Counted from the stretch's first letter, positions 25,506-39,899 are shown. The stretch is DNA of 39,899 nucleotides from Clostridiales bacterium (GCA_031271375.1 JAISVU010000027.1:1-39899), one strand, 5' to 3'. The notes: a model not told the origin generated them from the letters alone. Numbers and translations: made by a program.

Positions 25506-25829
25506 CTACCAGACTATAAGCCTGATAATGTCCTCGGCTTGGTCGTATGAGTCTTCCTGCGCTTTGGAATACAGTTTCTCGCAGTTTAAAAGAGCCTCCC
25601 TAAAGCTGTCCAAAGAATCGTGGAGCTTCGTCGTTACGGAATCCTTCGAGTCGACGTCGTCCCACTTCCTGCCGAATGCCATCGCGTCTTCGCCCATCCA
25701 GCCGGACGCAAGCATCGATTTCACTTCCCCGTCCGCTTCCTTCATTTGCCTGTTTTGAAGCTCGCAGTATTGCTTTACCGCCGCCGCCGTTTCTTTCAAC
25801 GCCCGGCGGTCTACATTTATCATCGCCAT
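25506..25829 (-). CDS. WXG100-like small helical protein (candidate effector partner 3)
   Basis: 107 aa, helix-turn-helix layout with a central W-M-G (SGWMGEDAMAF). Last gene of the T7SS block. Confidence 0.65.
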   Translation of the reverse strand: MAMINVDRRALKETAAAVKQYCELQNRQMKEADGEVKSMLASGWMGEDAMAFGRKWDDVDSKDSVTTKLHDSLDSFREALLNCEKLYSKAQEDSYDQAEDIIRLIVW

Positions 25830-25839
25830 AAAATTAACC

Positions 25840-26139
25840 TCACTTAAAATTATCGGCTAGCTTTGTATTATGTTCCTCAACCGCGATATAACCCGGATTT
25901 ATCTGCTGTTCCAGCATGGCTATATAGTTTTTTATAACGCTATGGCGGGCTTTTCCTCCGCTTATTATCCGCCGTAACGTGCCAATCGCCGCGTCCCCCG
26001 CGCTGCTGTTCCAGCCGTCGTCAAGCCGCTTCGACGTTCTTTCCAGAGCCGACATCTCGTTGTCAATAGCGTTATTGACGCTCTTGAGCTTAGTTATCGT
26101 CACGCCGACCCTTGCGGTGTCAATCGACTGCTTTGCCAT
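25840..26139 (-). CDS. WXG100/SACOL2603-like small helical protein (candidate effector partner 2)
   Basis: 99 aa with a central DDGWNSSAGDAA turn. The C-terminal tail ...KLADNFK parallels the EsxA-like ...QLSDAFK. Confidence 0.6.
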   Translation of the reverse strand: MAKQSIDTARVGVTITKLKSVNNAIDNEMSALERTSKRLDDGWNSSAGDAAIGTLRRIISGGKARHSVIKNYIAMLEQQINPGYIAVEEHNTKLADNFK

Positions 26140-26162
26140 AAAAATCAGCTCCCATCATAGTC

Positions 26163-26405
26163 TTATGAAAATATGCCGCTGATAAAGTCGCCGACATCTT
26201 CAAAAAAGTCGCCAGCTTTCTTGAATATGCTTTCATCCATATTATTAAGATCGGTTCTTATACCCTTGTACTTAGATATAATCTCGCCTACGGCATCCGC
26301 GCAGACTTTCTCGCCTATTCCCGTAAAATCCCCGCGGATTCCCTGTTCAATCCTTTCAAGCTCTCTTATGATATCCCCAACCTTGCTCCGGCATTGTTCC
26401 AGCAT
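26163..26405 (-). CDS. Small helical protein (candidate effector partner 1)
   Basis: 80 aa, acidic, predicted all-helical. It lies 5 nt downstream of the hydrolase gene stop. Confidence 0.5.
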   Translation of the reverse strand: MLEQCRSKVGDIIRELERIEQGIRGDFTGIGEKVCADAVGEIISKYKGIRTDLNNMDESIFKKAGDFFEDVGDFISGIFS

Positions 26406-26410
26406 GGCAA

Positions 26411-28135
26411 TTAACCCCCCATCATGTTATGCGCCTTGTTTTCAGCGGCCTCAAGCCGATCTGCGGTGTCGTTCAAGTAGTTTCTAATCCTTCCCAGGGT
26501 GAGGCTGCTGCCAGTAAGTATGTTTGCCTTAGCCACAGAGAGCTGGTCTATAATCCTAACCTCGCTGTAAAGGCTGTTCATCATCCTGTCAAGCTCCTTA
26601 ATATCTGTATTTACCCTCCCGACGCTTACTGCGTAGTCCCTCAGCGCCAATGTGTCGGCTTTGATGACAAAATGATCCTTCACATAATCGTCGCCGTGGT
26701 TGAAAGCGTCTTTTATCCATTCGGCAACTTTCTGAAGACCTTCCTTGATTGCATGAAAGATGTCGACCACGATATCCCACACATCGCCGAGTACTCTAAA
26801 CACTGCTTCCAACAAGGCTTTCATTGCTTTCAAAAACTCTTCCACATGAGTCACAAAAAATACTATTTTCTTGATCGCCGACACGATTATTATTATTGGC
26901 TTTGCGATATATACGGCTGCTAAAACGGCTAACCCAAATGCCACAGTCACCCCAATTAAAATCCCTATCTCCGCTATAGAGGCGTCATTGAAAGTATATT
27001 CTATTATAGCTCGTATATCCTCGGGCACCGCCTCTGCGATTAAATCAAACGCGAGCTTGGGCCTTGTTACAAGAGTCCATAGAATGGCAAAAAAGCCCAT
27101 TTGCTGGAACCCCATAGCTTCATCACTGAACAGGAACGCATACCAATTATCGGCTTCAAGGCCGATTTTTTTCAGGTCGTCCCAGTCCTTTGAACCCATA
27201 ACAATCTCAAGGAACCCCATAATTGTCTTGGCAGTGTCGTCCCGGTACTTCTTAGGCAATTTGTTTATCATGCCTACTATTTCAACCATCATTAACGCCA
27301 CAGGGCCTTGTTCAACCCTCTTCCCTTTATTGTCGAAGCGCGAATACAGCCTGCCGGTATTAGGATCAATCATACAAGCCATATCATGCCAGCCGACAAA
27401 GCCGTCATTGCCTATGGTTTCAACATAATATGTATTCTTTTTTGCCGCGAATTCCCTTTGCCCCAGCATATTGACATAGTCGTTGTTACCGTTAATCGCG
27501 AGTATCTTCTCTCTGGCCGCGTTAAAATGCTCGATTCCGTAGCGCTTCAGAATATGATTGTACAGGTCGTCAGAATGATTGGGACCGTCAAGAGAAAGGC
27601 AAAGGTCAATCAAACTTGAGTATTCAGACATCATCGTGACGTATTCCGCCACGTTCCCCCCCTGGGAATGCCCGCCCACAATAAGCTCTCCGGTATATCC
27701 ATGTCCGGCGTATGCCTTGACGCACTCATCGAAGAAAGTAAGGCCGTCCGCCTGTATCTGGGAGCTAATTCCGTCGGGGGCCATCGCTCCTTCCAAGTCA
27801 ACGCCGAATGAGATGGGATTTTGTACCCAGCCGCCTTTGGGAGTTCCTCTGTATTGGACATATACCGCGTTATCGTCTTTGAAGCATACCGCGCTCATTG
27901 GCGAATCGAAGCCCGCGTCTATGCTTGTTCTCAGAATCTTCATTTTGCCTATGGACGGGTCTTGATCAATAGCCGTCCTTATCAAATCGATATACTGACG
28001 GTTATCAGACTTTGCATCAAGGTCTTCGAACACTTCCTGTAAAGGCGTGCCCTCTCTTATTGGCTCATTATTGTCCGCGATAAGATACGTCAAAAGCTCC
28101 AGCACCGTGGACTTATTAATCAGGGCTTCATTCAC
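26411..28135 (-). CDS. Mbeg1-like (DUF2974) alpha/beta-hydrolase (lipase-type) protein with a central hydrophobic hairpin and C-terminal helical domain; candidate T7SS toxin
   Basis: 574 aa. YRGTPKGGW... and the nucleophile elbow GGHSQGGNVAEY...SLDGPN match the Mbeg1/DUF2974 pattern. Residues about 386-429 are strongly hydrophobic (IAEIGILIGVTVAFGLAVLAAVYIAKPIIIIVSAIKKIVFFV). Residues about 430-574 are amphipathic helices. The GTG start overlaps the upstream stop (GTGA). Confidence 0.8.
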   Translation of the reverse strand: MNEALINKSTVLELLTYLIADNNEPIREGTPLQEVFEDLDAKSDNRQYIDLIRTAIDQDPSIGKMKILRTSIDAGFDSPMSAVCFKDDNAVYVQYRGTPKGGWVQNPISFGVDLEGAMAPDGISSQIQADGLTFFDECVKAYAGHGYTGELIVGGHSQGGNVAEYVTMMSEYSSLIDLCLSLDGPNHSDDLYNHILKRYGIEHFNAAREKILAINGNNDYVNMLGQREFAAKKNTYYVETIGNDGFVGWHDMACMIDPNTGRLYSRFDNKGKRVEQGPVALMMVEIVGMINKLPKKYRDDTAKTIMGFLEIVMGSKDWDDLKKIGLEADNWYAFLFSDEAMGFQQMGFFAILWTLVTRPKLAFDLIAEAVPEDIRAIIEYTFNDASIAEIGILIGVTVAFGLAVLAAVYIAKPIIIIVSAIKKIVFFVTHVEEFLKAMKALLEAVFRVLGDVWDIVVDIFHAIKEGLQKVAEWIKDAFNHGDDYVKDHFVIKADTLALRDYAVSVGRVNTDIKELDRMMNSLYSEVRIIDQLSVAKANILTGSSLTLGRIRNYLNDTADRLEAAENKAHNMMGG

Positions 28136-28755
28136 TCTATTGTTCTCCTCTCAAAGTACACGTCCTTATAACCTTCCAAGTATCTGCCTGAGTAACTATC
28201 GTTAGTTGAGAGCTTTATTATGCTTAGTGAGTAATGGAGGCCACGTTCTTTCAGTTCCTTTAGGAAATCAACCGCGGCGCTTTCGTCAATCGTATCGGCG
28301 GTGATGTCGGCGTGAATCAGATGGTTTTTATATATGATATATTCATCAAACCCCGTTGAAGGGGAAATCCCTTCTGTTGAAGAAGCTCTTGGAATACTAA
28401 CAGTCACTTCGGGATTGTCAAAGAACCTATTGGCTATTTCTGTGAGATATTCCACAGTTCGGGTTTCATAATAAAAATCCATGAAATTATCCTTATATGT
28501 CTCTTCATCTCCGCTGCTGTAAATAACCACCAATATCTCTTTTCCTGGAAGGCTTTTCGCGGAAACAAGTATGGGATGCTGATCTCTGGGAGTCCCGGTA
28601 GACCCCCAAGGCCCGATGTAACTAAACTCCTCGCCATAGCGTTTTTCCATGTATTCCAAAGCCCCGTCATACACATTTCCTTTTTTGAGCATACAGCCAT
28701 AACCCCCTAGTATCACCCCTGCCATTAAAAGCAGCGGAATTAAATATCTTCTCAT
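28132..28755 (-). CDS. Membrane-anchored/lipoprotein-like protein, candidate immunity protein
   Basis: 207 aa. N-terminal signal/anchor MRRYLIPLLLMAGVILGGYGC (non-canonical lipobox). Translationally coupled to the hydrolase gene. The immunity role is inferred from position only. Confidence 0.65.
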   Translation of the reverse strand: MRRYLIPLLLMAGVILGGYGCMLKKGNVYDGALEYMEKRYGEEFSYIGPWGSTGTPRDQHPILVSAKSLPGKEILVVIYSSGDEETYKDNFMDFYYETRTVEYLTEIANRFFDNPEVTVSIPRASSTEGISPSTGFDEYIIYKNHLIHADITADTIDESAAVDFLKELKERGLHYSLSIIKLSTNDSYSGRYLEGYKDVYFERRTIE

Positions 28756-28833: not shown

Positions 28834-29142
28834 CTACTTAAACGCATCCGAAAGCTGTACGTTCGCGTTCTCTGTCGCCGTGTAGTCCTCGGCCACGTTT
28901 CTCTGGAGGAACTTTACGTACTGGTCAAGAACGTCGTGAAACGTCTGGAAATACTTGCCGGCGAATTCGTTGTATGAATCGCGGGTTTGCTCTGCCGCCT
29001 GGCCCGTCCAGTAGGTCGACAGGCTGTCAACGGTCGCCTTGCTTTCGTTTAGCAGCTGCTGAAGCTGGTCGTTGTCGCCGCTGATTTGCGAAGCGATTGA
29101 CAGCACTTGTTCTGTATCAAGAGTGATTTGAGTGTTTGCCAT
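28834..29142 (-). CDS. esxA: WXG100 family protein, EsxA-like
   Basis: 102 aa with central YWTGQAA (W-x-G). The C-terminus EDYTATENANVQLSDAFK contains YxxxE and a tail resembling S. aureus EsxA ...QQLSNNF... Confidence 0.85.
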   Translation of the reverse strand: MANTQITLDTEQVLSIASQISGDNDQLQQLLNESKATVDSLSTYWTGQAAEQTRDSYNEFAGKYFQTFHDVLDQYVKFLQRNVAEDYTATENANVQLSDAFK

Positions 29143-29152
29143 ATGCTCCTCC

Positions 29153-29449
29153 TTAATTGCTCAGTTGTTTAACGCTGGCAATGTTATTGTCCCGGTTGGC
29201 TTCGTAGTTGGCCGCTTGCTGATCCAACGCCTTAGCGGCTATCTCAATATGTTCGGTCATGGCTTTCAAATCATCGCAGAATCCCGTGATCTGCTCCACG
29301 AAGGCAAGGTTGTCCGCTGCCCTCCAAGCGTCGCCCATTGTTTGGGCCGCGTTCATCAGGCGGTTATGGACCGTGTTGTACTCCGCCGCCAATTCAGTAA
29401 ACTTCTGAGACGCTTTGTGCAATTCCGGTGGGTCTACTACTAGCTTCAT
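29153..29449 (-). CDS. WXG100-like partner protein (W-R-A in place of W-x-G)
   Basis: 98 aa, helical hairpin, central GDAWRAADNLAF. RBS AAAGGAGGAAG. Confidence 0.7.
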   Translation of the reverse strand: MKLVVDPPELHKASQKFTELAAEYNTVHNRLMNAAQTMGDAWRAADNLAFVEQITGFCDDLKAMTEHIEIAAKALDQQAANYEANRDNNIASVKQLSN

Positions 29450-29497: not shown

Positions 29498-29749
29498 TCA
29501 AATTAAAAGCAGTTTAGACGAATTGCGGATGCCGGCGTCGAATACGTTGATATTCCGGTCGAAGGGCCTTCCTGAGGCGGCGTCAAGGAGCATTGTGTCC
29601 GGGGTTCCCTTAAAACTCCCCCCGCAAATTGATTCCGCCAGGCGGACAAGAAGCGCAGTCGTATCCGATATCAGCTTCCCCGCGGGAATAAAAGCATCGA
29701 TATGCCTGCCCGACGCCGGTATATATACGTCAACCAAGTATTTCGTCAT
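29498..29749 (-). CDS. esaB: YukD/EsaB ubiquitin-like T7SS protein
   Basis: 83 aa: MTKYLVDVYIPASGRHIDAFIPAGKLISD...DAGIRNSSKLLLI. Start 29749 with RBS GGGGAAG. The longer ORF to 29935 overlaps the essC 3' end. Confidence 0.8.
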   Translation of the reverse strand: MTKYLVDVYIPASGRHIDAFIPAGKLISDTTALLVRLAESICGGSFKGTPDTMLLDAASGRPFDRNINVFDAGIRNSSKLLLI

Positions 29750-29760
29750 TTTGACTTCCC

Positions 29761-32700
29761 CTAATCTATCAATTTCACCAGCGCCGCAGACCCTTCGGTT
29801 ATTACAAACCCGTACCCCGGCGAGGTCTCCGCCTGGTAATCGGCGGTGCGTTTGTTTACGGTGAGTCGGTACTGGTTGTTTATCCCGCTGCCGGCCCAGA
29901 TGCCAGACATCGGATTGAAATGCGTTCTGTACCATTCCTCGGCCGTGAACGGGTTTAACGCGTTCACGGCATCGCCCACAACGAAATGGATATTGTATTC
30001 CTTAACGCATTTATCCATAGCCGTTTGAAGCCGGTTAAACGGAGTGTCGTCGTCCGCTTCCTTCTTTTCGTCCTCGGGCGGCCTGTAGCGTTCCAGCGCT
30101 GTTTTTAAAGCCGCCATAGACTGGATCATAACGAAGACATCCTCAAACACCGGCGGCGCTTCCCCCGCGTTCATCTTGTCTTTATACCCGTTATTCCTGG
30201 CAAGGGCCAAGTCATATACCTCATGGGCGCTCTTTACCAATTCCTCCAGGCCGGAGCCTCCCTGCGGCGTTAACATGATGGTTTTGACATCGTAATTATC
30301 CGCAATGAACGCACTCAAAGAACCCATGAACCCCTGCCACTCCTGGCCGGACGAAAGCACAAGGTTTACCGGGTTTTTAGTGAAATCATAATAAGCGATG
30401 TCCAGCGTGGATTTCTCCATACCTACCGGGACTTTGGAAAAATCATCTTTAGTTATATAGTCCTTCAAGAACTGCCCGTCAACCTTTTCCCTGATTACCG
30501 GAACCTTGACAGCGGTTTCGTTTAACGCGCCGTACTTGCCCAAAACCTCTTTTGAGAATTTTTGGATAAAGGTATAGGAGGATTCGTCCGCGCTTAGGCA
30601 GGATGTCTGAAATTCCAACAGGCTGTCTTTATCCCTGCGGAATAATCCCCTGCCTTTAAACCCTTCGGGCTGCATTCCCCCGGTCTTGCCGACGACAGAT
30701 GAATAATCGTCCGGGTTATTGAGCCTAAGGCAGAAAAGCTGTTTAAAGTTCTGCAGCAAAGCGAACCTGACATTATTGACCCCTATACAGGTCAGGATAA
30801 AGAAAATGCCGTATTTCGTCCCTTCCCTTGTGAGATAGCTGAGTTCGGCGGCTTTTTCCTCATAAAGCTCGTTAAAGGCGGCGTAGTTGTTGATAATAAT
30901 AAGCATCGCGGGTTCGGGTTTCTCGGCGCTTTTGTTATACTCGGCAAGAGAGCCGCCGGCGCGGGAAAGGAGTTTCTTCCTTGTTTCCAGCTTACCCAAA
31001 GCCAGCTTGAACAGATTGCCGACCTTTTCCTTCTCATACGAAAGTATGACGTCGCCGACGTGTGGCGCCTCGGAGAAAGCCGTCAAAGTCTCGGCGTCAA
31101 AGTCCAGTATATAGATATTCACTTCCTTAGGGGAATGCTCTTTTATCAGCGAATAGCATAAAGCCTCGACAAACATTGCCTTGCCGCTGCCTGATGAACC
31201 ATATACGATTACGTTCCCTTCCTGGGTTATCGGTACGCGCAGGAGGCCCTGGGCCTGCCTTGTCGGGTCGTCATACTCTCCGGCCACGGGGTTAAGCACA
31301 AACGGCTTCCCCCTGAGCTCCCCGTATTTTTCCGTAATCTCATCCGAATAAATCAAATCGGGCAGCGGGTCAAGCCACATCTTCCAGCGGCTTATCCCTT
31401 CCTCCCTGCTGACCTTCTCTATGTATGAAGTCATTACGTCAAGCTGCTTTTTCGGATCCTTTATCATCGCGAACCTATCCGTATTGGCTTCGGCGATGAC
31501 CTTCCCGTTGGTATTGATCACGGTAAGGCTGTCGTCCCGGTCTTTAATGACCTTTGACGAGGGATAGTACGGCGCTCCGGCCCAGGCCGACTGCCCGATC
31601 TCGAAGAGTTCGTTATACCCAACCTGAAGATAGAACCGGCCCGGATTGACAAGGGCCGCCGCGTCGGGCCTCTCAAGCATCTCCATGCTGTCCCCGCTGT
31701 CCTGCACCTTTAAGCAAACCTTGAAGCGGCTGTTGCTGCGGACCTGATCGTCAACGACGCCGCCGGGCTTCTGGGTCGCCAGGATCAAATGAACGCCGAG
31801 GCTGCGCCCGACGCGGGAGGCGCTGGTCAGCTCGGTCATAAAATCGGGCTGTTCCTTCTTTAATTCGGCGAACTCGTCGGATATGATAAACAGATGGGGC
31901 AGCGGAACCTTGACCTTCCCGTCCCGGTAGAGCTTTTGGTATTTGTAGATGTCGATACTGCCGATACCGTGCTGCTGCGCGGTATCGCGGAATATCGTCT
32001 CCCTGCGGTGCAGCTCGCTCCGCATAGAGGCGAGGGAACGCTTTATCCCGTTCCCGTCAAGGTTTGTGATTACCCCGGCGGTGTGGGGTATGTTCTCAAA
32101 GGCCTTCGCCATGCCGCCGCCCTTATAGTCTATCAGGATAAAAGCCACTTCGCGGGGATGGAAGGATACGGCCAATGAAAGGATATATGCGGTTATAAAC
32201 TCGCTTTTCCCCGACCCGGTCATCCCGGCGACAAGGCCGTGGGGGCCGTGGGCCTTCTCATGGAGGTCAAGTTTGAACGGTTCCCCGTATTTGTCTACGC
32301 CCACAACAACGGCCAACGATTTTGCCGGATTGTTATTCGACCAGTTCTCCGGCAGGTTCAAATGCTCAATCATCCCTATCTCAAGCATTTCAAAGAAGGA
32401 GTATTTGGGCGGCAGAGCGAAGTTTGAACCGTTTATGTCAATAAATGTGTTGGCCAAAACCTTCGTAGCCCTGTCCATATCCAATGATTCAGGGTTGTCC
32501 GCGATGAAGGCTATGGACGGGTCGCTGACATCGCTTATATATGTAAGGCTTGATACAGAGCCGTCCCCCGGCCTTCCCCTAAGCTCCGCCACGGCGGAAC
32601 ATTCCTTCGGCAGGTCTTTAAGCCTTCCGAACAGCGAAAGGACTGAGAATTTCAAGTTTTCTTTGTGTTCGGCCACCCTGCGGACGCACTCGGCTTTGGA

Positions 32701-34404
32701 AGCCAAATCCTTGTCCAGGCAGATTATAACGTAATACGGCTTTTCGTCCTCCAGTTTGCTTTCGGTTAAATCCTTGCGGTCTTCGATAATCCGGTCAAGG
32801 GAAAAAGAGAGGGCCTTCGCCTCGTCGGAGTTGGTGGCGATATAGCGGACGGTCTTGTCGTCGCTCATCGTATGGGGAAGCCACCGGGCGAATGCGAATT
32901 CCTCTGAATCCTTTTCGTCGTAGATCATAACGAGCTTAACCTCGTCATAGCTGTGCAAAGCCACGATTTGGAGAATAAGGCTCTTCGCGTAAGCGAACAG
33001 TTCCCTCCGGTTGGGGGACAGCGAGTATATGCCGCTGATATACCGCTCGACAAGGGGAAGGCACACCGGCACGTCGCTCAAGATATGCTCCTCTTCACCA
33101 AGCGCGTACATTTCCTCGGTTAGATTATCCGGCTCTACCGTGAATTGCCGGTGCGGGTAGGTTATGTTCGCCTTGAGCGGCAGATCGCCGTAACCCAGCC
33201 TAAGGGAAAGGAAATCCTTATGCTTGGGAGTGCGTTCCCAGATGAGGGGCGTCGGAGCCAGTATCCTGTCCAGATAAGCAGCCGCGGCGACATCGTTGGC
33301 CCGCATTATCCGCTCCTGCTCCGCAGTTTCAATTTCAATAAGCCCGCGAACCTGTTCAAGATACTTATGGTACATTTCCTGCCGTTTAGCTTCTTTCCTC
33401 ACCCTTAGCCTGCGCTGAAACGACTTAGTGATGACCGGCCACATGACGGTTCCCAGCAGCATACTGAAACACATGACCACCGAAGGCAGCGCCTGGGTTA
33501 TGTCCCCCCGCTGCAACGCGCTGGACACCGCAAAAGTACCGCTGGCTATGGAAGCCATTCCCATCGTAAGGGACGGCCCGATGAGCATGATCATCGGCAC
33601 GTCGTCGCTGCCCTGCTTGGCGGTCGGGGGATCAAGTTTCAGCTCATACTCGTCAACCCCGTGCTTGAACCGGGGCGCCCGGTAGAAATAATCCTCCGAA
33701 AAGTCCAATTCCTCGTCATTGTCCGGCTCCGGGTCGGCGGTTGCGGATGGAGGCCGGTACTCGGCTAAATCCGCGCTCTGTATCCGCACATTGCCGTCGG
33801 GATTGTTGACGAAGATTAAGTCCCCCGCTACGATTATCTGCATTCCCAGAATATAGACGACATCGCCCGCGTGCAGGCGGCGCTGCTTAACGGCGACGCC
33901 ATTAACATACGTGCGGTTCCTGCTGTCCAAATCCCTCACGGCGGCCCCGTTATTGGACAGGGCCAGCTCGGCGTGGGCGGCTGAAACAAATTTGTTCCCG
34001 TAGCAAATATTGTTGGCGGTTTCCCGTCCGATGCTTAGAACCGTCTTCGCCGCTCTCAGCCTGTAAATACCGTATCTCAGGCGGTCGGCGCTGAGGGGCT
34101 CTGTATACAGGATGTATTTGACCTTCCTGTCCTTGCTCTGGACCCTGTAAAGCTCCATTGGGTTCAATACGGCGGAAAGGAGTTCGTTATTGTCTTTGTC
34201 GACAACGCTGAACCTGCGGTTGGATTTTACCCTCCATTCGGAAACCCCGCCGGATTCCAGCGACCTTGAGGCCTCCACCGCCACGATGTCCGCCCTGTTG
34301 CCCTGATCCCCGCCGTCCTTTCCGCGCAGCCAATAATGCCCGGCGTACCGCTCCGGCAGTGTGATGCTTGTGTAATCGTTTTCAGAAAAGAGGGTTAGCT
34401 TCAT
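29761..34404 (-). CDS. essC: EssC/YukB FtsK-SpoIIIE-family T7SS ATPase with N-terminal FHA domains
   Basis: 1547 aa. The FHA region has GR...SAAH...NRTYVNG. It has TM helices and Walker A sites GMTGSGKSE and GSSGSGKAM. The architecture is typical of T7SSb EssC. Confidence 0.95.
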   Translation of the reverse strand: MKLTLFSENDYTSITLPERYAGHYWLRGKDGGDQGNRADIVAVEASRSLESGGVSEWRVKSNRRFSVVDKDNNELLSAVLNPMELYRVQSKDRKVKYILYTEPLSADRLRYGIYRLRAAKTVLSIGRETANNICYGNKFVSAAHAELALSNNGAAVRDLDSRNRTYVNGVAVKQRRLHAGDVVYILGMQIIVAGDLIFVNNPDGNVRIQSADLAEYRPPSATADPEPDNDEELDFSEDYFYRAPRFKHGVDEYELKLDPPTAKQGSDDVPMIMLIGPSLTMGMASIASGTFAVSSALQRGDITQALPSVVMCFSMLLGTVMWPVITKSFQRRLRVRKEAKRQEMYHKYLEQVRGLIEIETAEQERIMRANDVAAAAYLDRILAPTPLIWERTPKHKDFLSLRLGYGDLPLKANITYPHRQFTVEPDNLTEEMYALGEEEHILSDVPVCLPLVERYISGIYSLSPNRRELFAYAKSLILQIVALHSYDEVKLVMIYDEKDSEEFAFARWLPHTMSDDKTVRYIATNSDEAKALSFSLDRIIEDRKDLTESKLEDEKPYYVIICLDKDLASKAECVRRVAEHKENLKFSVLSLFGRLKDLPKECSAVAELRGRPGDGSVSSLTYISDVSDPSIAFIADNPESLDMDRATKVLANTFIDINGSNFALPPKYSFFEMLEIGMIEHLNLPENWSNNNPAKSLAVVVGVDKYGEPFKLDLHEKAHGPHGLVAGMTGSGKSEFITAYILSLAVSFHPREVAFILIDYKGGGMAKAFENIPHTAGVITNLDGNGIKRSLASMRSELHRRETIFRDTAQQHGIGSIDIYKYQKLYRDGKVKVPLPHLFIISDEFAELKKEQPDFMTELTSASRVGRSLGVHLILATQKPGGVVDDQVRSNSRFKVCLKVQDSGDSMEMLERPDAAALVNPGRFYLQVGYNELFEIGQSAWAGAPYYPSSKVIKDRDDSLTVINTNGKVIAEANTDRFAMIKDPKKQLDVMTSYIEKVSREEGISRWKMWLDPLPDLIYSDEITEKYGELRGKPFVLNPVAGEYDDPTRQAQGLLRVPITQEGNVIVYGSSGSGKAMFVEALCYSLIKEHSPKEVNIYILDFDAETLTAFSEAPHVGDVILSYEKEKVGNLFKLALGKLETRKKLLSRAGGSLAEYNKSAEKPEPAMLIIINNYAAFNELYEEKAAELSYLTREGTKYGIFFILTCIGVNNVRFALLQNFKQLFCLRLNNPDDYSSVVGKTGGMQPEGFKGRGLFRRDKDSLLEFQTSCLSADESSYTFIQKFSKEVLGKYGALNETAVKVPVIREKVDGQFLKDYITKDDFSKVPVGMEKSTLDIAYYDFTKNPVNLVLSSGQEWQGFMGSLSAFIADNYDVKTIMLTPQGGSGLEELVKSAHEVYDLALARNNGYKDKMNAGEAPPVFEDVFVMIQSMAALKTALERYRPPEDEKKEADDDTPFNRLQTAMDKCVKEYNIHFVVGDAVNALNPFTAEEWYRTHFNPMSGIWAGSGINNQYRLTVNKRTADYQAETSPGYGFVITEGSAALVKLID

Positions 34405-34442
34405 ATTTGCCCCCGTTCTATTGCCAGTGTTCCGGCCATTGC

Positions 34443-35972
34443 CTACTTGAACAACAGCTCTGTAAGGCCGCTTTTATGTTCGCTCCCCGGACCGGGGACG
34501 TTGAGCAGGGTTATATTATCTATATGTAATGATTCTCTTCCGCATTTTATTACATCGCCGATTTTGACCGGGACGTTCTCCGTTACCGTAACCCCGTTCA
34601 GCCTGGTTTTATTTGTCTTGCTCAAGTGAATGATTACGACGCCGTCATCCCCGGCGGTGATTTTACACTGTTCCCTGGAAACCGTTTTATCCTCAAGCCG
34701 CAGGCCGCAGTGCTCCCCCCTGCCGATAAGCAGCTCGTCTTGAAATGACAGCGCCCATGTCTTTTTGGGGTCCTTCTGATTTGTCAGCTCAATCGAACAA
34801 CGGCTTGCAAACGGCCCTTTGCCGTATTCGGAATCGCCGTGCAAAAGTATTGTGTCATCGTCTTCATAATACTCCGGAGCGGCCTCAGCAGGCTCCCCGG
34901 CCTTCTTCCTTCGAAGGATTACAATAAAAAGAATGCCTGCGGCGGCTAAGACCAGCACAACCCCGGCGGCGATAAATATACCGCCTGGAATGCGTTCCTT
35001 AACAGGTTCGGGCTCGGGAATAACCTCTTCGTCAGCCGGTTCCGGCGCTGACGTGACAGGGGGTTGCGCGATAGGGCTGTCAACAGCCGGATACTTAAAG
35101 TCTGCGGTCAATTCAAGACTGCCGTCGGCAATATCGGTCTGCCTCACAGACCCGTCCATAAGGTTGGGTGGGGTAATGGCTTCGAGATAGGAATAACCGG
35201 CGACGGAAAGGGACGCCGCCAAGCCGCCCGGATCAGACGACGGGTCGAGGGTAAAATACCGGCCCCCGCTCAAACGCACTATTGAAGACAGCTCTTTGCT
35301 CTCGGGGCCGCCCTCGCTGACGCGCACCGCGTCGATCGGGTAGAACTTATCCTGCAGTTCGATCAGAAGCTCCTCTAATGTAATGCCTCTGGCGGTATCG
35401 TCTACCCCGTCCGTTATAACGACAGTCCGGTAAAAGACCGGCTTCCCGTCATGGGGTTCAAGGAGCGGGATCGTATCCTGTATCGCGTTGTAGACAATGC
35501 TCCAGTCCCCGTCAAACTCGACTTCGTCTATACCCTTCGCAATGTCGTAACGGTCTGATGAGAATTCCGTAAGGACGGTCAGCTCTTCCCCGAATATGGC
35601 AAGCCTGAACTCCTCGTTGGCCGCCTTGTTTTCGACCAGTTCATTAAGCGTTTCGATTACGACGCTTCTGGCGTCTCTGGGCATTGAGGTGGATATGTCA
35701 ACCAATAAGGTTGTTTTAATAAGGGCGTTTGGGCCGGAAAGGGAACCCGCAGCGGTTACCTCTGCGGGGATATTGGACACGGCAAGCCTAACGCTCTCGG
35801 CGTTCAACGGCCCGTCGGTAAAGACAGTCACAGCTCGTCCCGATATGTACATCTGGGAGATTTTCTGGTTTCCGCCGCCTACGGCGGACACGCTTAGGTA
35901 AGGCCCGTTAAACAGCGTAACGGATAGGAGTACGGCAATAAATACTGTAAACGCGGCCGGATACTTTTTCAT
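34443..35972 (-). CDS. Secreted vWA domain - TM helix - cytoplasmic FHA domain protein
   Basis: 509 aa. Signal peptide, MIDAS-type LLVDISTSM, ...VVITDGVDD, Pro/Glu-rich linker, TM IFIAAGVVLVLAAAGILFIVIL-RRKK. The C-terminal FHA has LLIGRGEHC...VSREQ...NKTRLNG. Confidence 0.85.
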   Translation of the reverse strand: MKKYPAAFTVFIAVLLSVTLFNGPYLSVSAVGGGNQKISQMYISGRAVTVFTDGPLNAESVRLAVSNIPAEVTAAGSLSGPNALIKTTLLVDISTSMPRDARSVVIETLNELVENKAANEEFRLAIFGEELTVLTEFSSDRYDIAKGIDEVEFDGDWSIVYNAIQDTIPLLEPHDGKPVFYRTVVITDGVDDTARGITLEELLIELQDKFYPIDAVRVSEGGPESKELSSIVRLSGGRYFTLDPSSDPGGLAASLSVAGYSYLEAITPPNLMDGSVRQTDIADGSLELTADFKYPAVDSPIAQPPVTSAPEPADEEVIPEPEPVKERIPGGIFIAAGVVLVLAAAGILFIVILRRKKAGEPAEAAPEYYEDDDTILLHGDSEYGKGPFASRCSIELTNQKDPKKTWALSFQDELLIGRGEHCGLRLEDKTVSREQCKITAGDDGVVIIHLSKTNKTRLNGVTVTENVPVKIGDVIKCGRESLHIDNITLLNVPGPGSEHKSGLTELLFK

Positions 35973-36008: not shown

Positions 36009-36037
36009 ATTATCCCACAAAAAACCGGTAATGTCAA
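36009..36037 (-). promoter_or_regulatory. Candidate internal promoter upstream of the vWA-FHA gene/essC
   Basis: On the minus strand: TTGACA, 17 nt, GATAAT. Confidence 0.4.
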
Positions 36038-36076: not shown

Positions 36077-37774
36077 TCATGAATCGGGCACATATATCCA
36101 TTTAGTGTACTTCTGCACGCCATCCACGAAAACATACACCGTTTCTTCCGACCTGAGCAGCGCCATATCCACATAAACCGTATGCGGCAGCATATCTCTG
36201 CTTACTGTCTCCGAATAAATCGTCAGCCAAAAACCCGACGAATCCTTCCTTTGAATCGTGACCCATGCTTCGTCGGCCACGTCCGTGAACTCATTTGCCG
36301 TTATCGTAAACGCGTAGGCCGGATTAGAGGGAGGTGTAAAAGGGGGAGGTTCGCTTTCCGTTATTTCAGGCGTTTTGGCAGGCGTTCTGTAGGGCGGTTC
36401 AATGCCCCGACCATCGTCAGACCCGGCTTCATCGGGACGCCGTGACTGCTCCGGCGGCGGCGTTTCCGATGCGATATCTTCATAACCCGTTTCTTCTCCT
36501 TCTTCTCCGGTACCGCCGCCCGGTTCAGGGGTCATTGAATACCCTGTAAGGGCATTAGCCGATGGATCCGAAGGATTCGCGGTGAGGCCGGGCGTCGAAG
36601 GGACCGCAGGTTCGGAGGGCGGCGTTTCTTGAAGCGGGATTTCGGTTACAAGCCCCGCCGTTCCGTGAGCCGTCCTATCGTCGCGCTCAACAAAAAACCA
36701 CGGCAGAACAAACAAAGCGGCCGCAAGTAAAACCAATGCCCCGGCGACAACGATGATAAGCCGGTAATTTAAAGCGCTCTTATGTTTTTTAGGTTTAGGC
36801 GGCAAAGGCGGCGGAACGTCGCGGGACGGTTTTGGGGACGGGCTTGAGGCGCCGCTGTAAGAGCCCTCGGGCCCTTTGGATGAGCGCGGCTTTAAGACCC
36901 GCGCCTCTTTCTCTTCCCGGCTCAGTCCATCTAGACATTTCTCAAGCCCCGCTTTGAAGCTTTCCGCGTTCTTATAGCGGTCTTTCTTAGGGGCGCAGGC
37001 TTTCGACAGGCAATCCGCGAGCCTTTTGTTCCCGTGAATAGGGGGCGGGAACTCTTCCGTCCTGGACTTTCTTAGCAGCTTATACAGCACGATGCCCAGT
37101 GAATAGATATCAACTGTGTGGTCTCCCGGTTCCCTCGCGCTTATTTCCGGGGCCATGTATTCAAAAGTCCCCGCGACCGTCATAACCTGCGAGCCGCCGG
37201 ACAGATTCTTCGCGACGCCGAAATCCCCCAGCTTATACCCTCCCTCATCTGTGACGAAAAGGTTGGCTTCCTTAATGTCCCTGTGGACGACACCGTTTTT
37301 ATGGCACAGAATCAAAGCCTCACAGACGCTGATACCCAGAGACAGGATATCCCCGAGGCTCATCCCCTTTTCAAAAATAGCCGTCCTGAGGGGCTTTAGA
37401 TATTCCATCCTAATGAATATCTCACATCTGGACGGGTTATCGTACCGTTTTATTTCATGGTCGTAATAATTCACTATGTAGCGGCTGTCCTTCTTGCTAA
37501 GTTTGAAAAGGTTTGTTATTTCCTCCGTAGCCAGCTTGACCCGCTTTAAATAGCGCGAAAGGCTCGCGGCGCCGCCGTCGGTTACGCCGTCATAATCAAA
37601 TGATTCGCTTTCGCCTTCATCCCGGATTTCTATATGCTTGACAGCATAATTAATCCCCGTCTCCTCGTCCGCGGCCAGATAAACGCTTCCTGACGCGCCT
37701 CCGCCCAGGAACTTTATTAACTTGTGCCTTCCGGCATACCCGCCGGTTAAGTCGCGGCGTCCGCTTATATCCAT
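36077..37774 (-). CDS. Hanks-type Ser/Thr protein kinase - TM helix - Pro-rich linker - small extracellular beta domain
   Basis: 565 aa. G-loop LGGGASGSVY, AVKHI lysine, HRDIKEANL, DFG, YMAPE, TM LIIVVAGALVLLAAALFVLPWFFV. Confidence 0.9.
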   Translation of the reverse strand: MDISGRRDLTGGYAGRHKLIKFLGGGASGSVYLAADEETGINYAVKHIEIRDEGESESFDYDGVTDGGAASLSRYLKRVKLATEEITNLFKLSKKDSRYIVNYYDHEIKRYDNPSRCEIFIRMEYLKPLRTAIFEKGMSLGDILSLGISVCEALILCHKNGVVHRDIKEANLFVTDEGGYKLGDFGVAKNLSGGSQVMTVAGTFEYMAPEISAREPGDHTVDIYSLGIVLYKLLRKSRTEEFPPPIHGNKRLADCLSKACAPKKDRYKNAESFKAGLEKCLDGLSREEKEARVLKPRSSKGPEGSYSGASSPSPKPSRDVPPPLPPKPKKHKSALNYRLIIVVAGALVLLAAALFVLPWFFVERDDRTAHGTAGLVTEIPLQETPPSEPAVPSTPGLTANPSDPSANALTGYSMTPEPGGGTGEEGEETGYEDIASETPPPEQSRRPDEAGSDDGRGIEPPYRTPAKTPEITESEPPPFTPPSNPAYAFTITANEFTDVADEAWVTIQRKDSSGFWLTIYSETVSRDMLPHTVYVDMALLRSEETVYVFVDGVQKYTKWIYVPDS

Positions 37775-37817
37775 GTCGTTTTACTCCGCATCCGAACAAA
37801 GCCTATCACACATCATC

Positions 37818-37846
37818 ATAATATCACCTGGACATTTTAATGTCAA
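37818..37846 (-). promoter_or_regulatory. Near-consensus sigma-A promoter of the kinase/T7SS block
   Basis: On the minus strand: TTGACA (37846-37841), exactly 17 nt, TATTAT (37823-37818), about 45 nt upstream of the kinase ATG. Confidence 0.5.
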
Positions 37847-37875
37847 CTCGGCGCTCAAATAAATCGTTAAAAGGA

Positions 37876-37904
37876 TTGACTAAATATAACTTTTGGTGCA
37901 TAAT
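37876..37904 (+). promoter_or_regulatory. Candidate CRISPR leader promoter, divergent from the T7SS promoter
   Basis: TTGACT, 17 nt, CATAAT, preceded by TG. Confidence 0.35.
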
Positions 37905-37925
37905 TACAATCATGGGGTTTGAAAC
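37890..37925 (+). repeat. Degenerate CRISPR repeat (only the 3' 12 nt GGGGTTTGAAAC are conserved)
   Basis: 37914-37925 is identical to the 3' end of the two intact repeats. Upstream positions are mostly diverged. Confidence 0.35.
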
Positions 37926-37990
37926 GGGTATTAAAGGTACCATTGTCAGCAGTAACGTCAACAACTTTAGGATTACGTCCAACATTGCGT

Positions 37991-38132
37991 ATGTCATCCT
38001 GAGCGTTCAGGAGAATACGGACTTACATAGAAGTCCGGTAGCGAAGGATATTACTGTTAATCAAAACTTAAAAGATCCTTCGCTTTCAAACTCTCATCAA
38101 CGCCACACTGCCATGAACGCTCAGGATGACAT
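37991..38132. repeat. 142-bp nested imperfect palindrome (MITE-like or structured-RNA element)
   Basis: Outer 19-nt perfect arms ATGTCATCCTGAGCGTTCA (37991-38009) and TGAACGCTCAGGATGACAT (38114-38132). Inner 10-nt arms AGCGAAGGAT (38040-38049) and ATCCTTCGCT (38074-38083). There is also a local hairpin CGGACTT..AAGTCCG (38018-38037). Confidence 0.75.
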
Positions 38133-38194
38133 GTAGCAGTAAACATATATCCCTAAGTTGTAGACATTATTGTTAGCAGCGCAATCCCGCTAAT

Positions 38195-38305
38195 TTTCGC
38201 GAAGCCTTTTCCCCGAAAGGGGTTTGAAACGCCTCGTCGGGCTCTCCCGGCCCAGGCTTTGGTTGTCCATTTCGCGAAGCCTTTTCCCCGAAAGGGGTTT
38301 GAAAC
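38195..38305 (+). CRISPR. Mini CRISPR array: two identical 36-nt repeats and one 39-nt spacer
   Basis: Repeat TTTCGCGAAGCCTTTTCCCCGAAAGGGGTTTGAAAC at 38195-38230 and 38270-38305. An internal CCCC-GAAA-GGGG hairpin is followed by the 8-nt TTTGAAAC handle, so the crRNA would be on the + strand. Spacer GCCTCGTCGGGCTCTCCCGGCCCAGGCTTTGGTTGTCCA. cas6 is adjacent. Confidence 0.6.
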
Positions 38306-38320
38306 ATCACCGATTTTGAA

Positions 38321-38350
38321 CAAAAAAACCGCCTTCTATAGCAAGGCGGT
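38321..38350 (-). terminator. Rho-independent terminator of cas6
   Basis: On the minus strand: ACCGCCTT-GCTATAG-AAGGCGGT followed by TTTTTTTG. Confidence 0.7.
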
Positions 38351-38422
38351 GGCGCGTCGGAGTAAGTTTGTATGGCGGTTCAAGGGTTTTAGGCGCAAAC
38401 GGGGCATTAACAAGCTCACACT

Positions 38423-39139
38423 TTATTCCACAATCAATATCCCGCCCATCCCCAACGCCGTCTTTGCCCCAACCCCCGCATAGGCGGAGTAGCGAACAAG
38501 CAAGGCCAGACGGTCACGCTGTTCCTGATCTCCGCCGGGGCAGAGCGTTAGCTTGCCTTCAAAGCCAGGACGGGCGATACCAGGCTTGATTCTGTATTCC
38601 GCGGTACGCAGTTCATAGCGGGTATAGGTAACGAGGTCGCACAGCGTAAATACTTCTTCGTTGGAAATATCAATGCCCTCATACTTCCGCAGCTTTGCCG
38701 CGGCGGTATATAAAAGCGGCGGCAGCGAGTATAGATTAGAGGGACGCCGGTTATGGCGGTATGACGCCGGGGACGCTAGAATTATTCGGAATTCTTTAGG
38801 AGCCGGGCCGCGTAATTTCCCAATCGTAACCGCCGGTTTTTCAATGCGGTTCTCTATCATTATACCGTTTCTCAGCCACGATATTGCGATTGACCGCGCT
38901 GACTTCACCGCGTCAAAAAGCGGCGCGGCGTCCTCATGCAGCAAAGACAGCCGCAGCGCGATGTTGTTTTTCTGCACCCGGGCGAATAAGCTGAACGGCC
39001 GCAAATCGTCGGACATGTGCATCAGCTTAGAGTATTCCTCGCTGACCTGCCTCATCAGCCAGGCGTGAACCTTTACCGCCAGCTCACAGTTAAGCCGGGT
39101 CAGGTCGGGCTTTTCAAGGACGAAGTCAATTTGCCGCAT
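38423..39139 (-). CDS. cas6: CRISPR-associated endoribonuclease Cas6
   Basis: 238 aa. C-terminal glycine-rich loop YAGVGAKTALGMGG is typical of Cas6. It is adjacent to the repeat array. Confidence 0.75.
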   Translation of the reverse strand: MRQIDFVLEKPDLTRLNCELAVKVHAWLMRQVSEEYSKLMHMSDDLRPFSLFARVQKNNIALRLSLLHEDAAPLFDAVKSARSIAISWLRNGIMIENRIEKPAVTIGKLRGPAPKEFRIILASPASYRHNRRPSNLYSLPPLLYTAAAKLRKYEGIDISNEEVFTLCDLVTYTRYELRTAEYRIKPGIARPGFEGKLTLCPGGDQEQRDRLALLVRYSAYAGVGAKTALGMGGILIVE

Positions 39140-39152
39140 ATAAGAGCTCCCA

Positions 39153-39890
39153 TCATGGTGTTAAATAAAGGAGTATGTATATTGATTCCCTTAGCTTTGT
39201 AATTTGTTTGCTTGTTGAAAAATAGAGCGAGTTTCTTTCAAATAATTGATTTGATAGATTGACATCAGGACAATATATTATACAGTGAGTTTCTTTTCTT
39301 TCACAATAATCCGATATTTCAGTGCACAATGCGTCGTTAGAACTTTTAGCTTTGTATATTACAACCGAAGCATCTTCCGTTTTTCTTTTTACATCAGTAA
39401 AATCAGTTATTTTATGTATTCCTGCGATATACCCACGATCATTTATTTCGTTTTTAAGAGATCGCAAATTTTCATCGTTATCCATATATAGGAATACGAT
39501 TCTTTTTTCATAAATCTTTTTATCGCGCAACTTTAATAGCTCTTGAAATTCTCTATCGCACTTATCTTCGATTGATTTATGCGTATGAAATCCAAAAAAC
39601 AAAAGGACAGTGCCAGTAGCCGCAATAATCACGCCTAAAATCCAAATCAAAGTTTGCATTTGTTCTTTATAAAAATCAACATCGGACTGTAAATATAGTA
39701 GAGAAGACTGCTGACTAGGTATATTTAAATTATCAATGCGGTTGTTCAACTTCATGTACCAACAAACACCAAAAGAAAGGATAATTATAGCCGTACAACT
39801 TAACAAATGGGAAAAGATGCCGATAAATAAAACATGGCATACAGTGAGGACTACAGAAAAAGAGCAATAGAATACCACCGCGAAGGTCAT
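39153..39890 (-). CDS. AT-rich gene for a 3-TM membrane protein with a cytoplasmic alpha/beta (flavodoxin/TIR/receiver-like) domain
   Basis: 245 aa. TM segments FAVVFYCSFSVVLTVCHVLFIGIF, LLSCTAIIILSFGVCWYM and LIWILGVIIAATGTVLLFFGF. The C-terminal region alternates strands and helices (IVFLYM.., ASVVIYK.., HCIIYCP..). There is a 13-nt gap to cas6. The start is near the window edge and could lie further upstream. Confidence 0.55.
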   Translation of the reverse strand: MTFAVVFYCSFSVVLTVCHVLFIGIFSHLLSCTAIIILSFGVCWYMKLNNRIDNLNIPSQQSSLLYLQSDVDFYKEQMQTLIWILGVIIAATGTVLLFFGFHTHKSIEDKCDREFQELLKLRDKKIYEKRIVFLYMDNDENLRSLKNEINDRGYIAGIHKITDFTDVKRKTEDASVVIYKAKSSNDALCTEISDYCERKETHCIIYCPDVNLSNQLFERNSLYFSTSKQITKLRESIYILLYLTP

Positions 39891-39899
39891 ACGCTGGCG

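Follow-up and report, generated by a model that had tools for sequence, protein, structure and literature searches.

An extracytoplasmic vWA domain joined through the membrane to an FHA domain: a candidate phosphorylation-controlled EssC adaptor in clostridial type VII secretion loci

How a type VII secretion system (T7SS) of the T7SSb type is assembled and triggered is largely open, and the variants T7SSc-j, which hinted at control by threonine phosphorylation, gave no link to the outside of the cell. A locus in 39,899 nucleotides of DNA from a Clostridiales bacterium (GCA_031271375.1 JAISVU010000027.1:1-39899; the whole stretch is called the window below) raises the question of whether a gene next to essC could supply such a link. 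This open reading frame (ORF; 34443..35972, minus strand, as are all features given below for the window) has an ATG start with the ribosome-binding site AAGGGA 8 nt upstream and encodes a protein of 509 amino acids (aa), in which a preliminary description had recognized an extracellular vWA domain, a single transmembrane (TM) helix and a cytoplasmic FHA domain and had proposed a sensor/adaptor of the T7SS. Our analysis points to a family in which a metal-site domain outside the cell, a phosphothreonine (pThr) reader inside it, a candidate phosphorylation site between them and a position at the head of the essC operon would together offer the link. We consider it on balance probable that the protein acts as a phosphorylation-controlled adaptor or scaffold for EssC in clostridial T7SSs without EssA, EssB and EsaA.

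Translation placed the signal peptide, the MIDAS (metal-ion-dependent adhesion site) motif, the one TM helix with its following RRKK and the FHA motifs where the preliminary description had read them. A word-indexed search found 16 relatives with 31-47% identity, and a profile search covering 1.84 billion cluster representatives expanded the family to 657 cluster representatives at E <1e-30, at least 126 of them full length; the 127 members that entered the conservation counts are 21-44% identical to the window protein. The carriers are gut, rumen and termite Clostridia, with Acetatifactor muris DSM 23669, Thermoclostridium caenicola DSM 19027 and Lachnospiraceae bacterium COE1 as cultured representatives. 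An AlphaFold2 model of the window protein, built from 16 homologues, was confident over aa 40-290 and 390-490, and the linkers at aa 299-333 and 355-388 were disordered.

The chain opens with a predicted signal peptide (aa 1-30; 35883..35972) that starts with MKK, continues in a hydrophobic core and ends at a V-S-A|V cleavage-type site; it reads MKKYPAAFTVFIAVLLSVTLFNGPYLSVSA|V, with the cut predicted after residue 30. Its n-region, h-region and small-x-small pattern are kept in 95-98% of 125 relatives, 97% of which have an N-terminal hydrophobic region and 95% a K/R ahead of it. The ectodomain is followed by a Pro/Glu-rich stalk (aa 299-331; 34980..35078), predicted to be disordered (predicted local distance difference test, pLDDT, <50), for whose counterparts in the same relatives the median length is 48 aa and the P/T/S/E content 47%, and which probably spans the cell wall. 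Next come the TM helix (aa 332-353; 34914..34979; hydropathy 3.0; helix 333-354 in the model) and the stop-transfer/positive-inside signal RRKK (aa 354-357; 34902..34913). The charge after the helix is positive in 99% of relatives, and the mean net charge is +3.9 over the 12 aa past it and -0.7 over the 12 aa before it. Because the signal peptide, the single TM helix, RRKK and the charge bias across relatives all agree, the protein is predicted, very consistently, to be a type I single-pass protein with the vWA domain outside and the FHA domain in the cytoplasm, the order and topology first proposed for it.

The vWA domain (aa 84-255; 35208..35723) stays below the Pfam cut-offs in the window protein itself, scoring 24.6 bits against VWA_2 (aa 88-189; cut-off 27) and 18 against VWA (cut-off 23.8); in 50 diverse family members, VWA_2 was detected in 47 (best E 1.3e-16) and VWA in 41. 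A sequence search of the PDB returned matches for the FHA domain only and none for the ectodomain, so the fold of the latter was taken from AlphaFold and Foldseek. The model has a pLDDT of ~90 or more across aa 40-290, and Foldseek against the PDB gave probability 1.0 to ArnB, ITIH1, 4fx5, BatB, Rpn10 and the integrin alpha-M I domain, with ArnB of the ArnAB complex as the top match (8s05, E 5e-13). The modelled domain is flanked by beta strands at aa 38-77 (35742..35861) and at aa 261-293 (35094..35192), the latter including an invariant D273-G274. The alignments to ArnB and ITIH1, which combine a vWA domain with a beta-sandwich, span ~300 columns, and by this comparison the strands at aa 38-77 probably form half of such a sandwich beside the vWA fold. 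The MIDAS motif D92-I-S94-T-S96 (35685..35699) is completed by S158 and D188, and all five positions are conserved among the 127 relatives (D92 96%, S94 98%, S96 94%, S/T158 97%, with Ser in 75 and Thr in 48 members, and D188 91%). A vWA fold with a complete MIDAS site is confirmed at the level of the structural model; a sensor role for this ectodomain is one that we purely infer.

One divergent relative, a 632-aa protein of Candidatus Limiplasma (L085:1998-3896, and L057), keeps the signal peptide, the vWA-like fold, the TM helix and an FHA domain with the canonical His. The MIDAS DxSxS is lost (the residues are DLNTY), and the stalk has acquired an additional domain; on the 5' side of essC, its gene is flanked by those of a kinase and a membrane-anchored PP2C.

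On the cytoplasmic side, the FHA domain (aa 390-490; 34503..34805) scores 44.2 bits against Pfam FHA (PF00498; aa 415-478) at a curated cut-off of 20.7, is matched in all 50 of the diverse relatives and is modelled with a pLDDT of ~81-92 over most of its length. Ki-67 and Rv0020c were its sequence matches and were found again by structure with Foldseek, Ki-67 as 1r21 (template-modelling score, TMt, 0.77) and Rv0020c as 3poa (TMt 0.86, root-mean-square deviation 1.9). The motif positions are G417-R418, S432-R-E-Q435 and N454-K-T456 (followed by NG460), and the pThr contacts are strongly conserved across the 127 relatives: G417 in 100%, R418 in 98%, S432 in 86%, N454 in 98% and T456 in 98%. The preliminary description had noted that Gln replaces the His of the SxxH motif and had questioned phosphopeptide binding on that ground. 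The Gln is there, but the doubt did not survive the wider comparison, in which position 435 is Gln in 76 relatives and His in 51 while the other pThr residues are conserved at 86-100%; judged by the alignment, Gln is a family-wide alternative to His and no mark of decay.

What could this domain read? The linker between the TM helix and the FHA domain is predicted to be disordered and is poorly conserved (~20% identity) apart from one threonine, T374, which at least 90% of the 50 diverse members share. In the window protein it lies in the motif D-D-D-T374-I-L-L (34842..34862; pLDDT <50), and the usual consensus in the family is [DE]-[KE]-T-E-hydrophobic-hydrophobic. The pattern T-x-hydrophobic-hydrophobic occurs in 99 of 125 linkers, compared with 16 expected from shuffled linkers, and the stricter T-[ED]-hydrophobic-hydrophobic in 65, compared with 3 expected; from the Thr to the first FHA strand the median distance is 16 residues (range 5-34). 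A site with acidic residues ahead of the Thr and a hydrophobic side chain at +3 is well matched to bacterial kinases of the Hanks type as well as to many FHA domains. Because it is near-invariant, stands in this acidic and +3 hydrophobic context and lies in a disordered linker, T374 is the best candidate, on sequence grounds, for both phospho-acceptor and FHA ligand. The source of pThr had earlier been sought in the juxtamembrane region of the neighbouring kinase; this segment (aa 285-338 of the kinase) contains no Thr at all and hence cannot be the ligand, which leaves T374 as the better candidate.

A threonine and its presumptive reader on one chain, a median of 16 residues apart, could also form an intramolecular OFF switch, for which GarA and OdhI are the precedent. 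Here pT374 bound in cis would free EssC, YukD or the kinase, such that the kinase inhibits and PP2C activates. The scheme gains from the genomic linkage of PP2C, which is commoner and tighter than that of the kinase, with the PP2C gene standing between the family gene and essC in the closest relatives, and from weak NCBIfam matches of the OdhI/FhaB type on the FHA domains of the window locus. It sits poorly with those members in which the Thr lies 5-10 residues from the first FHA strand, too short for the binding loops to be reached, and with the AlphaFold model, which leaves the linker undocked (pLDDT <50), although phosphate is absent from the model. We hold such a switch to be decidedly unlikely.

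To which machinery does the protein belong? We annotated, with tblastn and phmmer, 10 metagenomic loci, 21 loci from species-representative genomes, loci of three distant family members sampled singly, and 80 EssC-centred loci. Of the 27 distinct loci with enough flank, 26 have an essC gene no more than 10 kb from the vWA-FHA gene, and three short contigs nonetheless carry WXG100 genes. The linkage persists where EssC shares 28-31% identity with that of the window, and T7SS linkage extends to family members with as little as 22-25% identity to the window protein; EssC/EccC, WXG100 and YukD thus recur beside the gene across divergent genomes. PP2C and/or a Ser/Thr kinase is encoded in ~22 of 32 distinct loci, about two thirds, and the gene directly after the vWA-FHA gene encodes PP2C in ~14 loci and a kinase in 8. 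This near-exclusive linkage to EssC/YukD/WXG100 loci, usually with PP2C and/or a Hanks-type kinase, supports the adaptor reading and upholds the T7SS membership proposed at the outset. The partnership with the kinase was borne out in part: the kinase gene adjoins in the window, but the pairing is not universal, and in the closest relatives the kinase gene is distal or absent.

Three gene orders were distinguished. In type 1, comprising the window and its closest relatives (EssC 55-71% identical), the order is vWA-FHA, [PP2C], EssC, YukD, WXG x2, lipoprotein, lipase, (kinase). Type 2 (EssC ~30%) runs EssC ... WXG, vWA-FHA, kinase, (PP2C) and includes T. caenicola DSM 19027, A. muris DSM 23669 and Lachnospiraceae COE1. 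Type 3 (EssC ~30%; L004/5 and L007/8) runs EssC ... SLH protein, vWA-FHA, zinc-ribbon membrane proteins. In the reverse direction, a family member is present in every locus of the close EssC clade with an intact upstream flank (in L034 this region is broken by an insertion sequence element), and among 66 loci with an EssC of no more than 36% identity to that of the window, the family gene is confined to L057 and L085.

Several loci add observations of their own. The closest relatives place a PP2C gene between the vWA-FHA gene and essC (L010, L011, L013, L014, L016, L022 and L033 were compared), where the window (34405-34442) has none, and the kinase gene, upstream of the vWA-FHA gene in the window, follows the lipase gene in relatives (L011/L036, L016/L035 and L032). 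In a high-GC member of the close EssC clade (L040:5035-5955), the gene directly 5' of essC encodes a TM helix, a basic patch and an FHA domain without vWA, a form that resembles FipA/Rv0019c and suggests that the ectodomain is dispensable there. One Oscillospiraceae metagenome-assembled genome (CANROC01) holds two paralogous loci of the order EssC ... vWA-TM-FHA, kinase on separate contigs (L018 and L019). Immediately 5' of the vWA-FHA gene in L001, L004/L005, L006 and L007/L008 are genes for large SLH-domain (S-layer homology) proteins (675-874 aa; Ig-like, RCC1 or WG-repeat regions are present in some), which are candidates for extracellular partners or wall-spanning components. The gene of 548-600 aa that follows vWA-FHA in L004 and L007 was considered as a hidden kinase or pseudokinase and set aside, as it gave only weak zinc-ribbon matches.

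We compared how the two halves of the protein diverge relative to EssC. Across 20 related loci, which are phylogenetically non-independent, a correlation was found between FHA and EssC ATPase divergence (Mantel r = 0.58, reached by 0 of 2000 permutations), but not between ectodomain and EssC divergence (r = 0.11, reached by 216 of 2000). FHA identity is 51% inside the close EssC clade and 38% between clades; for the vWA domain the values are 52% and 54%. Tight co-evolution of the whole protein with EssC was accordingly retained only in part (Mantel r = 0.37), for the FHA domain and not for the ectodomain, and whole-protein identity is ~41% where EssC identity is 60-70%. The pattern fits a cytoplasmic partner that changes with the T7SS type and an extracellular ligand without such specificity.

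The preliminary description had suggested phospho-dependent recruitment at EssC. EssC has an FHA domain of its own, FHA2 (33835..34047 in the window), whose residues read as the canonical G-R / S-A-A-H / N-R-T. The canonical pattern (G-R / S-x-x-H / N-x-T) holds in the window's clade and in L001, L004, L006, L007 and L112, and FHA2 is degenerate, with every one of these residues lost (GN / ..EY / SAT), in the type-2 loci L015, L018, L019, L021, L028 and L030. EssC FHA2 is therefore excluded as the universal reader of the linker pThr, and the FHA domain of the vWA-FHA protein is the only pThr reader common to all loci; recruitment through EssC FHA2 is possible in the window's clade and does not generalize.

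In a rather unlikely alternative, the protein is a constitutive structural core subunit that replaces EssB/EsaA and, in the manner of YscD/PrgH of type III secretion, builds the membrane and wall-spanning section of the machine; its FHA domain binds EssC or YukD independently of phosphorylation, and kinases and phosphatases are accessory or act elsewhere. It is the sole accessory membrane protein conserved in window-type loci (vWA-FHA, [PP2C], EssC, YukD, WXG x2), some loci have no kinase or phosphatase nearby, and EssA, EssB and EsaA gave no Pfam or NCBIfam match among the ORFs scanned across the window. The FHA region also passes Pfam Yop-YscD_cpl (PF16697; 38.1 at a cut-off of 33.2), and proteins combining FHA, TM and ectodomain can form structural rings; moreover, in T7SSb, EssC FHA domains that lack a pThr site still bind the EssB pseudokinase (PMC11217815). 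Yet the pThr-binding residues, which such a subunit would not need and which the T7SSb EssC FHA domains have lost, are strongly conserved here, as is a Thr motif in an otherwise disordered linker. The form without an ectodomain in L040, an ectodomain that does not co-diverge with EssC and the low whole-protein identity at high EssC identity also speak against a fixed core part.

In the window, the essC gene (29761..34404; 934 bits, passing the TIGR03928 equivalog) is co-oriented and begins 38 bp after the vWA-FHA stop codon, in a gap that holds its own ribosome-binding site, GGGGG, and in which no promoter or terminator match was found. Upstream, a strong promoter-like site, TTGACA-17-(TG)GATAAT (36009..36037; 11 of 12 consensus positions), occupies the 104-bp gap between the kinase stop codon and the vWA-FHA gene. 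Given the 38-bp gap free of promoter and terminator and the promoter-like site ahead, the vWA-FHA gene, as read from the DNA, opens the essC operon. The kinase gene, with a second promoter-like site upstream of it (37846..37818), may be transcribed separately. The possibility raised earlier, that the site at 36037..36009 defines an independent transcription unit, holds insofar as it parts the gene from the kinase and fails insofar as the gene heads the operon of essC.

Another explanation is that the gene belongs to a TerY-P-type module for general sensing of the envelope or of metals, which merely stands beside T7SS genes or controls their transcription and is no component of the machine. Operons of vWA, PP2C and kinase, at times with FHA, are recurrent and portable (PMC10542128; the Deinococcus DRA0331-0334 operon is an example), LytTR regulators are encoded in L006 and L112, the ectodomain evolves independently of EssC, and L027 has no EssC nearby. 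However, EssC accompanies the gene in 26 of the 27 informative loci, even where it is only ~30% identical, FHA divergence follows EssC divergence, and the gene is co-oriented with essC 38 bp away with no terminator between. Furthermore, the protein has no DNA-binding or other output domain and no PADLOC match, and its signal peptide and TM helix set it apart from the cytoplasmic vWA proteins of the TerY type. We regard this explanation as very improbable.

The adaptor reading can be spelled out as follows. The locus kinase would phosphorylate T374, and pT374 would be captured by an FHA domain, most generally that of a neighbouring copy in trans, giving Chk2-like head-to-tail oligomers; in the window's clade, the canonical FHA2 of EssC could serve as an alternative reader. 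Capture would promote the assembly or activation of the EssC complex, and PP2C would reset it. The vWA ectodomain, held out on its stalk, would bind an acidic-residue ligand through its metal site and thereby bias the cytoplasmic step; the ligand would not be specific to EssC type and could be a component of the cell envelope or the surface of another cell, with SLH-domain proteins and secreted WXG100 proteins as natural candidates.

A further proposal takes the family as marking one or more undescribed clostridial T7SS subtypes, in which a receptor-like protein replaces EssA/EssB/EsaA and firing is gated by contact from the outside in, parallel to PpkA-Fha1 of the type VI secretion system (T6SS). 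Engagement outside the cell, through MIDAS, of its own envelope or of a neighbour would lead to capture of the linker pThr by the FHA domain, and this capture would oligomerise the protein and so license assembly of the EssC hexamer. We think this proposal doubtful as it stands.

A number of observations weigh against the adaptor reading. L040 keeps the TM helix and FHA domain alone, which indicates that at least one lineage can do without the ectodomain; the motif of the window protein itself, T-I-L-L, departs from the consensus T-E-hydrophobic-hydrophobic; and the spacing between Thr and FHA domain constrains binding in cis. As to the enzymes, the window carries a kinase but no PP2C, and neither kinase nor phosphatase is within reach in L002/3, L004/5, L007/8 and L009. 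L027, an informative locus, has the gene with a kinase and PP2C and lacks EssC inside 10 kb, the loci behind the Mantel tests share ancestry, and the promoter before the vWA-FHA gene has a consensus match only in its favour.

The neighbours in the window are those first described, namely a one-TM kinase, EssC, a YukD-like gene and two WXG100 genes. The Ser/Thr kinase (36077..37774; 565 aa, TM aa 339-357; Pkinase E 1.6e-36) has intact GxGxxG, AVK, HRD, DFG and APE motifs. Its nearest homologues are T7SS-linked kinases of ~825 aa with TPR domains, and the one that was looked up lies in a T7SS locus adjoining PP2C and a vWA gene fragment. The exterior of the window kinase (36077-36520, aa ~420-565) consists of a ~110-aa Pro/Thr/Glu-rich stretch and a ~95-aa beta-rich C-terminal domain; the latter has no detectable homologue, and the nearest kinase relatives have TPR or NPCBM-like ectodomains instead. 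Downstream of essC are the gene for an 83-aa YukD/EsaB-like ubiquitin-fold protein (29498..29749; weak Pfam YukD match; counted from M63 of a longer ORF, with 83-aa YukD-like orthologues in relatives' loci) and the two WXG100 genes (29153..29449 and 28834..29142; Pfam WXG100 31.3 and 40.1 bits; TIGR03930).

Beyond these, a gene for a 207-aa lipoprotein-like protein (28132-28755), possibly with an immunity function, is followed by one for a 574-aa protein (26411-28135) whose N-terminal part is an Mbeg1-like/DUF2974 alpha/beta-hydrolase domain bearing the motif GHSQG and whose C-terminus is helical, and by two genes for WXG-like partners (25840-26139 and 25506-25829). By sequence the hydrolase resembles a 'reverse' T7SS lipase toxin, and the region 25506-28755 is a probable toxin cassette; this lipase-type cassette is conserved in L011, L013, L014 and L016. 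The T7SS cluster is bounded by asnA and cas6. The Cas6 gene (38423-39139) adjoins the kinase gene and has Cas6_IIIa as its best PADLOC match (E 1.8e-21), with no CRISPR array or further cas gene visible in the remaining 760 bp of the window. An anti-phage TerY-P-like module tied to this Cas6 was considered and rejected: there is no PADLOC match, and the family follows EssC, not CRISPR. Rfam across the whole window and a tandem-repeat scan over 37700-39899 returned nothing.

With so few parts (vWA-FHA, EssC, YukD and WXG100, with or without PP2C and kinase), these loci would be attractive as minimal systems for reconstitution and structural work, and through their lipase-type toxins the family bears on bacterial competition in gut communities. 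Should the gene prove dispensable for secretion, the finding would shrink to a portable vWA/FHA signalling cassette that travels with T7SS islands.

How does the protein compare with known systems? Garrett, Higginson & Palmer 2024 (PMC11217815) define T7SSc-j with TsxD kinases, TsxF PPM phosphatases, TsxJ, a cytoplasmic FHA protein with DUF6382, and TscE, a cytoplasmic vWA protein. The portions of that T7SSb-j catalogue available list no protein with signal peptide, vWA, TM and FHA, and the available portions of text and supplement do not mention the carrier genera that were looked for; among the later papers searched, none names further T7SS subtypes. Phospho-control of variant T7SSs has thus already been proposed, and what is probably new is the domain fusion and its topology, in a putative phospho-regulated accessory of a non-canonical T7SS.

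The nearest counterpart among these variants is TsxJ of T7SSe/f/j, likewise a separate FHA protein in a non-canonical T7SS locus with a membrane kinase and/or PP2C. Further likenesses are the canonical pThr site that EssC has retained in the window's clade, which is also reported for TseC and TsjC, and the TPR domains of the window kinase's closest homologues, present in TsjD as well. However, TsxJ has an N-terminal DUF6382 and lies wholly in the cytoplasm (in TsfJ, which has two TM helices, the two domains are likewise on the inner side), whereas the vWA-FHA family has a signal peptide, an outside vWA domain and one TM helix. Identity with TsxJ was rejected: DUF6382 was detected in none of the 50 diverse family members, and a TsxJ-like gene coexists with the vWA-FHA gene in L114, so the protein is an additional component and no TsxJ variant. 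That locus (L114:10001-21530), whose family member is ~24% identical to the window protein, looks like T7SSf/j and has the order vWA-TM-FHA, PP2C, PP2C, kinase, DUF6382+FHA (TsxJ-like), MinD/TadZ-like ATPase, YukD, EssC.

The TscE/TscD/TscF set of T7SSc and the TerY-P triad, the latter predicted to be a metal-dependent phospho-switch (PMC10542128), share the genetic coupling of vWA, kinase and PP2C, which in T7SSc is also tied to the T7SS. TscE and TerY are, however, cytoplasmic and without signal peptide, TM helix or FHA domain, and T7SSc EssC lacks FHA domains; the window protein carries its vWA domain outside the cell and joins it through the membrane to FHA. EssB/YukC of T7SSb similarly partners EssC from the membrane, which it crosses once, with one domain in the cytoplasm and another outside the cell, and the vWA-FHA protein may fill its role in loci without EssB. 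The two have no similarity in sequence or fold, and the cytoplasmic pseudokinase fold of EssB is bound by EssC FHA in a phospho-independent manner. The EssB/YukC, EsaA and EssA genes that mark a canonical T7SSb locus are missing among the window ORFs scanned, although EssC itself belongs to the TIGR03928 equivalog.

Among FHA proteins outside T7SS, the ring proteins YscD/PrgH/EscD of type III secretion have a cytoplasmic FHA fold, one TM helix and an extracytoplasmic domain, and share the PF16697 match. Their FHA domain is N-terminal, in the opposite orientation, and their periplasmic ring-building domains are not vWA. YscD-type FHA domains are not known to carry pThr-binding residues. Mycobacterial FipA/FhaB (Rv0019c) is a membrane-anchored FHA protein with essentially the architecture of the TM-FHA form in L040, and among bacterial proteins it and FhaA (Rv0020c) match the FHA domain best, in sequence as in structure. 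In FipA, a Thr targeted by a kinase lies just N-terminal to the FHA domain. These mycobacterial proteins differ in having roles in cell division and cell-wall synthesis and no vWA ectodomain, and the NCBIfam score is 35.9, far from the equivalog threshold of 125. Archaeal kinases regulate ArnA and ArnB. This FHA (ArnA) and vWA (ArnB) pair of Sulfolobus acidocaldarius (8s05, 5a8j) includes the best ectodomain match, but there FHA and vWA are on two distinct proteins of the cytoplasm, which form a complex and regulate the expression of the archaellum, whereas the vWA and FHA domains of the window protein lie on opposite sides of the membrane and cannot touch.

The best functional analogy, as an analogy, is the threonine phosphorylation pathway of T6SS, represented by PpkA/PppA/Fha1 of Pseudomonas aeruginosa (PMC3224232) and by TssL-pThr with Fha of A. 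tumefaciens, in which an outside vWA domain, a kinase, a PP2C and an FHA protein control a transmembrane secretion machine. The preliminary description had already drawn this parallel with the H1-T6SS, and we judge it apt. The parts are dealt out differently: there the vWA domain is on the kinase, here it is on the FHA protein, which is itself membrane-bound where that of the T6SS pathway is soluble and a substrate of the kinase, and Pfam finds no vWA domain in the ectodomain of the window kinase. The setting is likewise different, a T7SS in monoderm Clostridia, and the sequence relation is limited to shared domains (TIGR03354 TagH, 23.7 bits).

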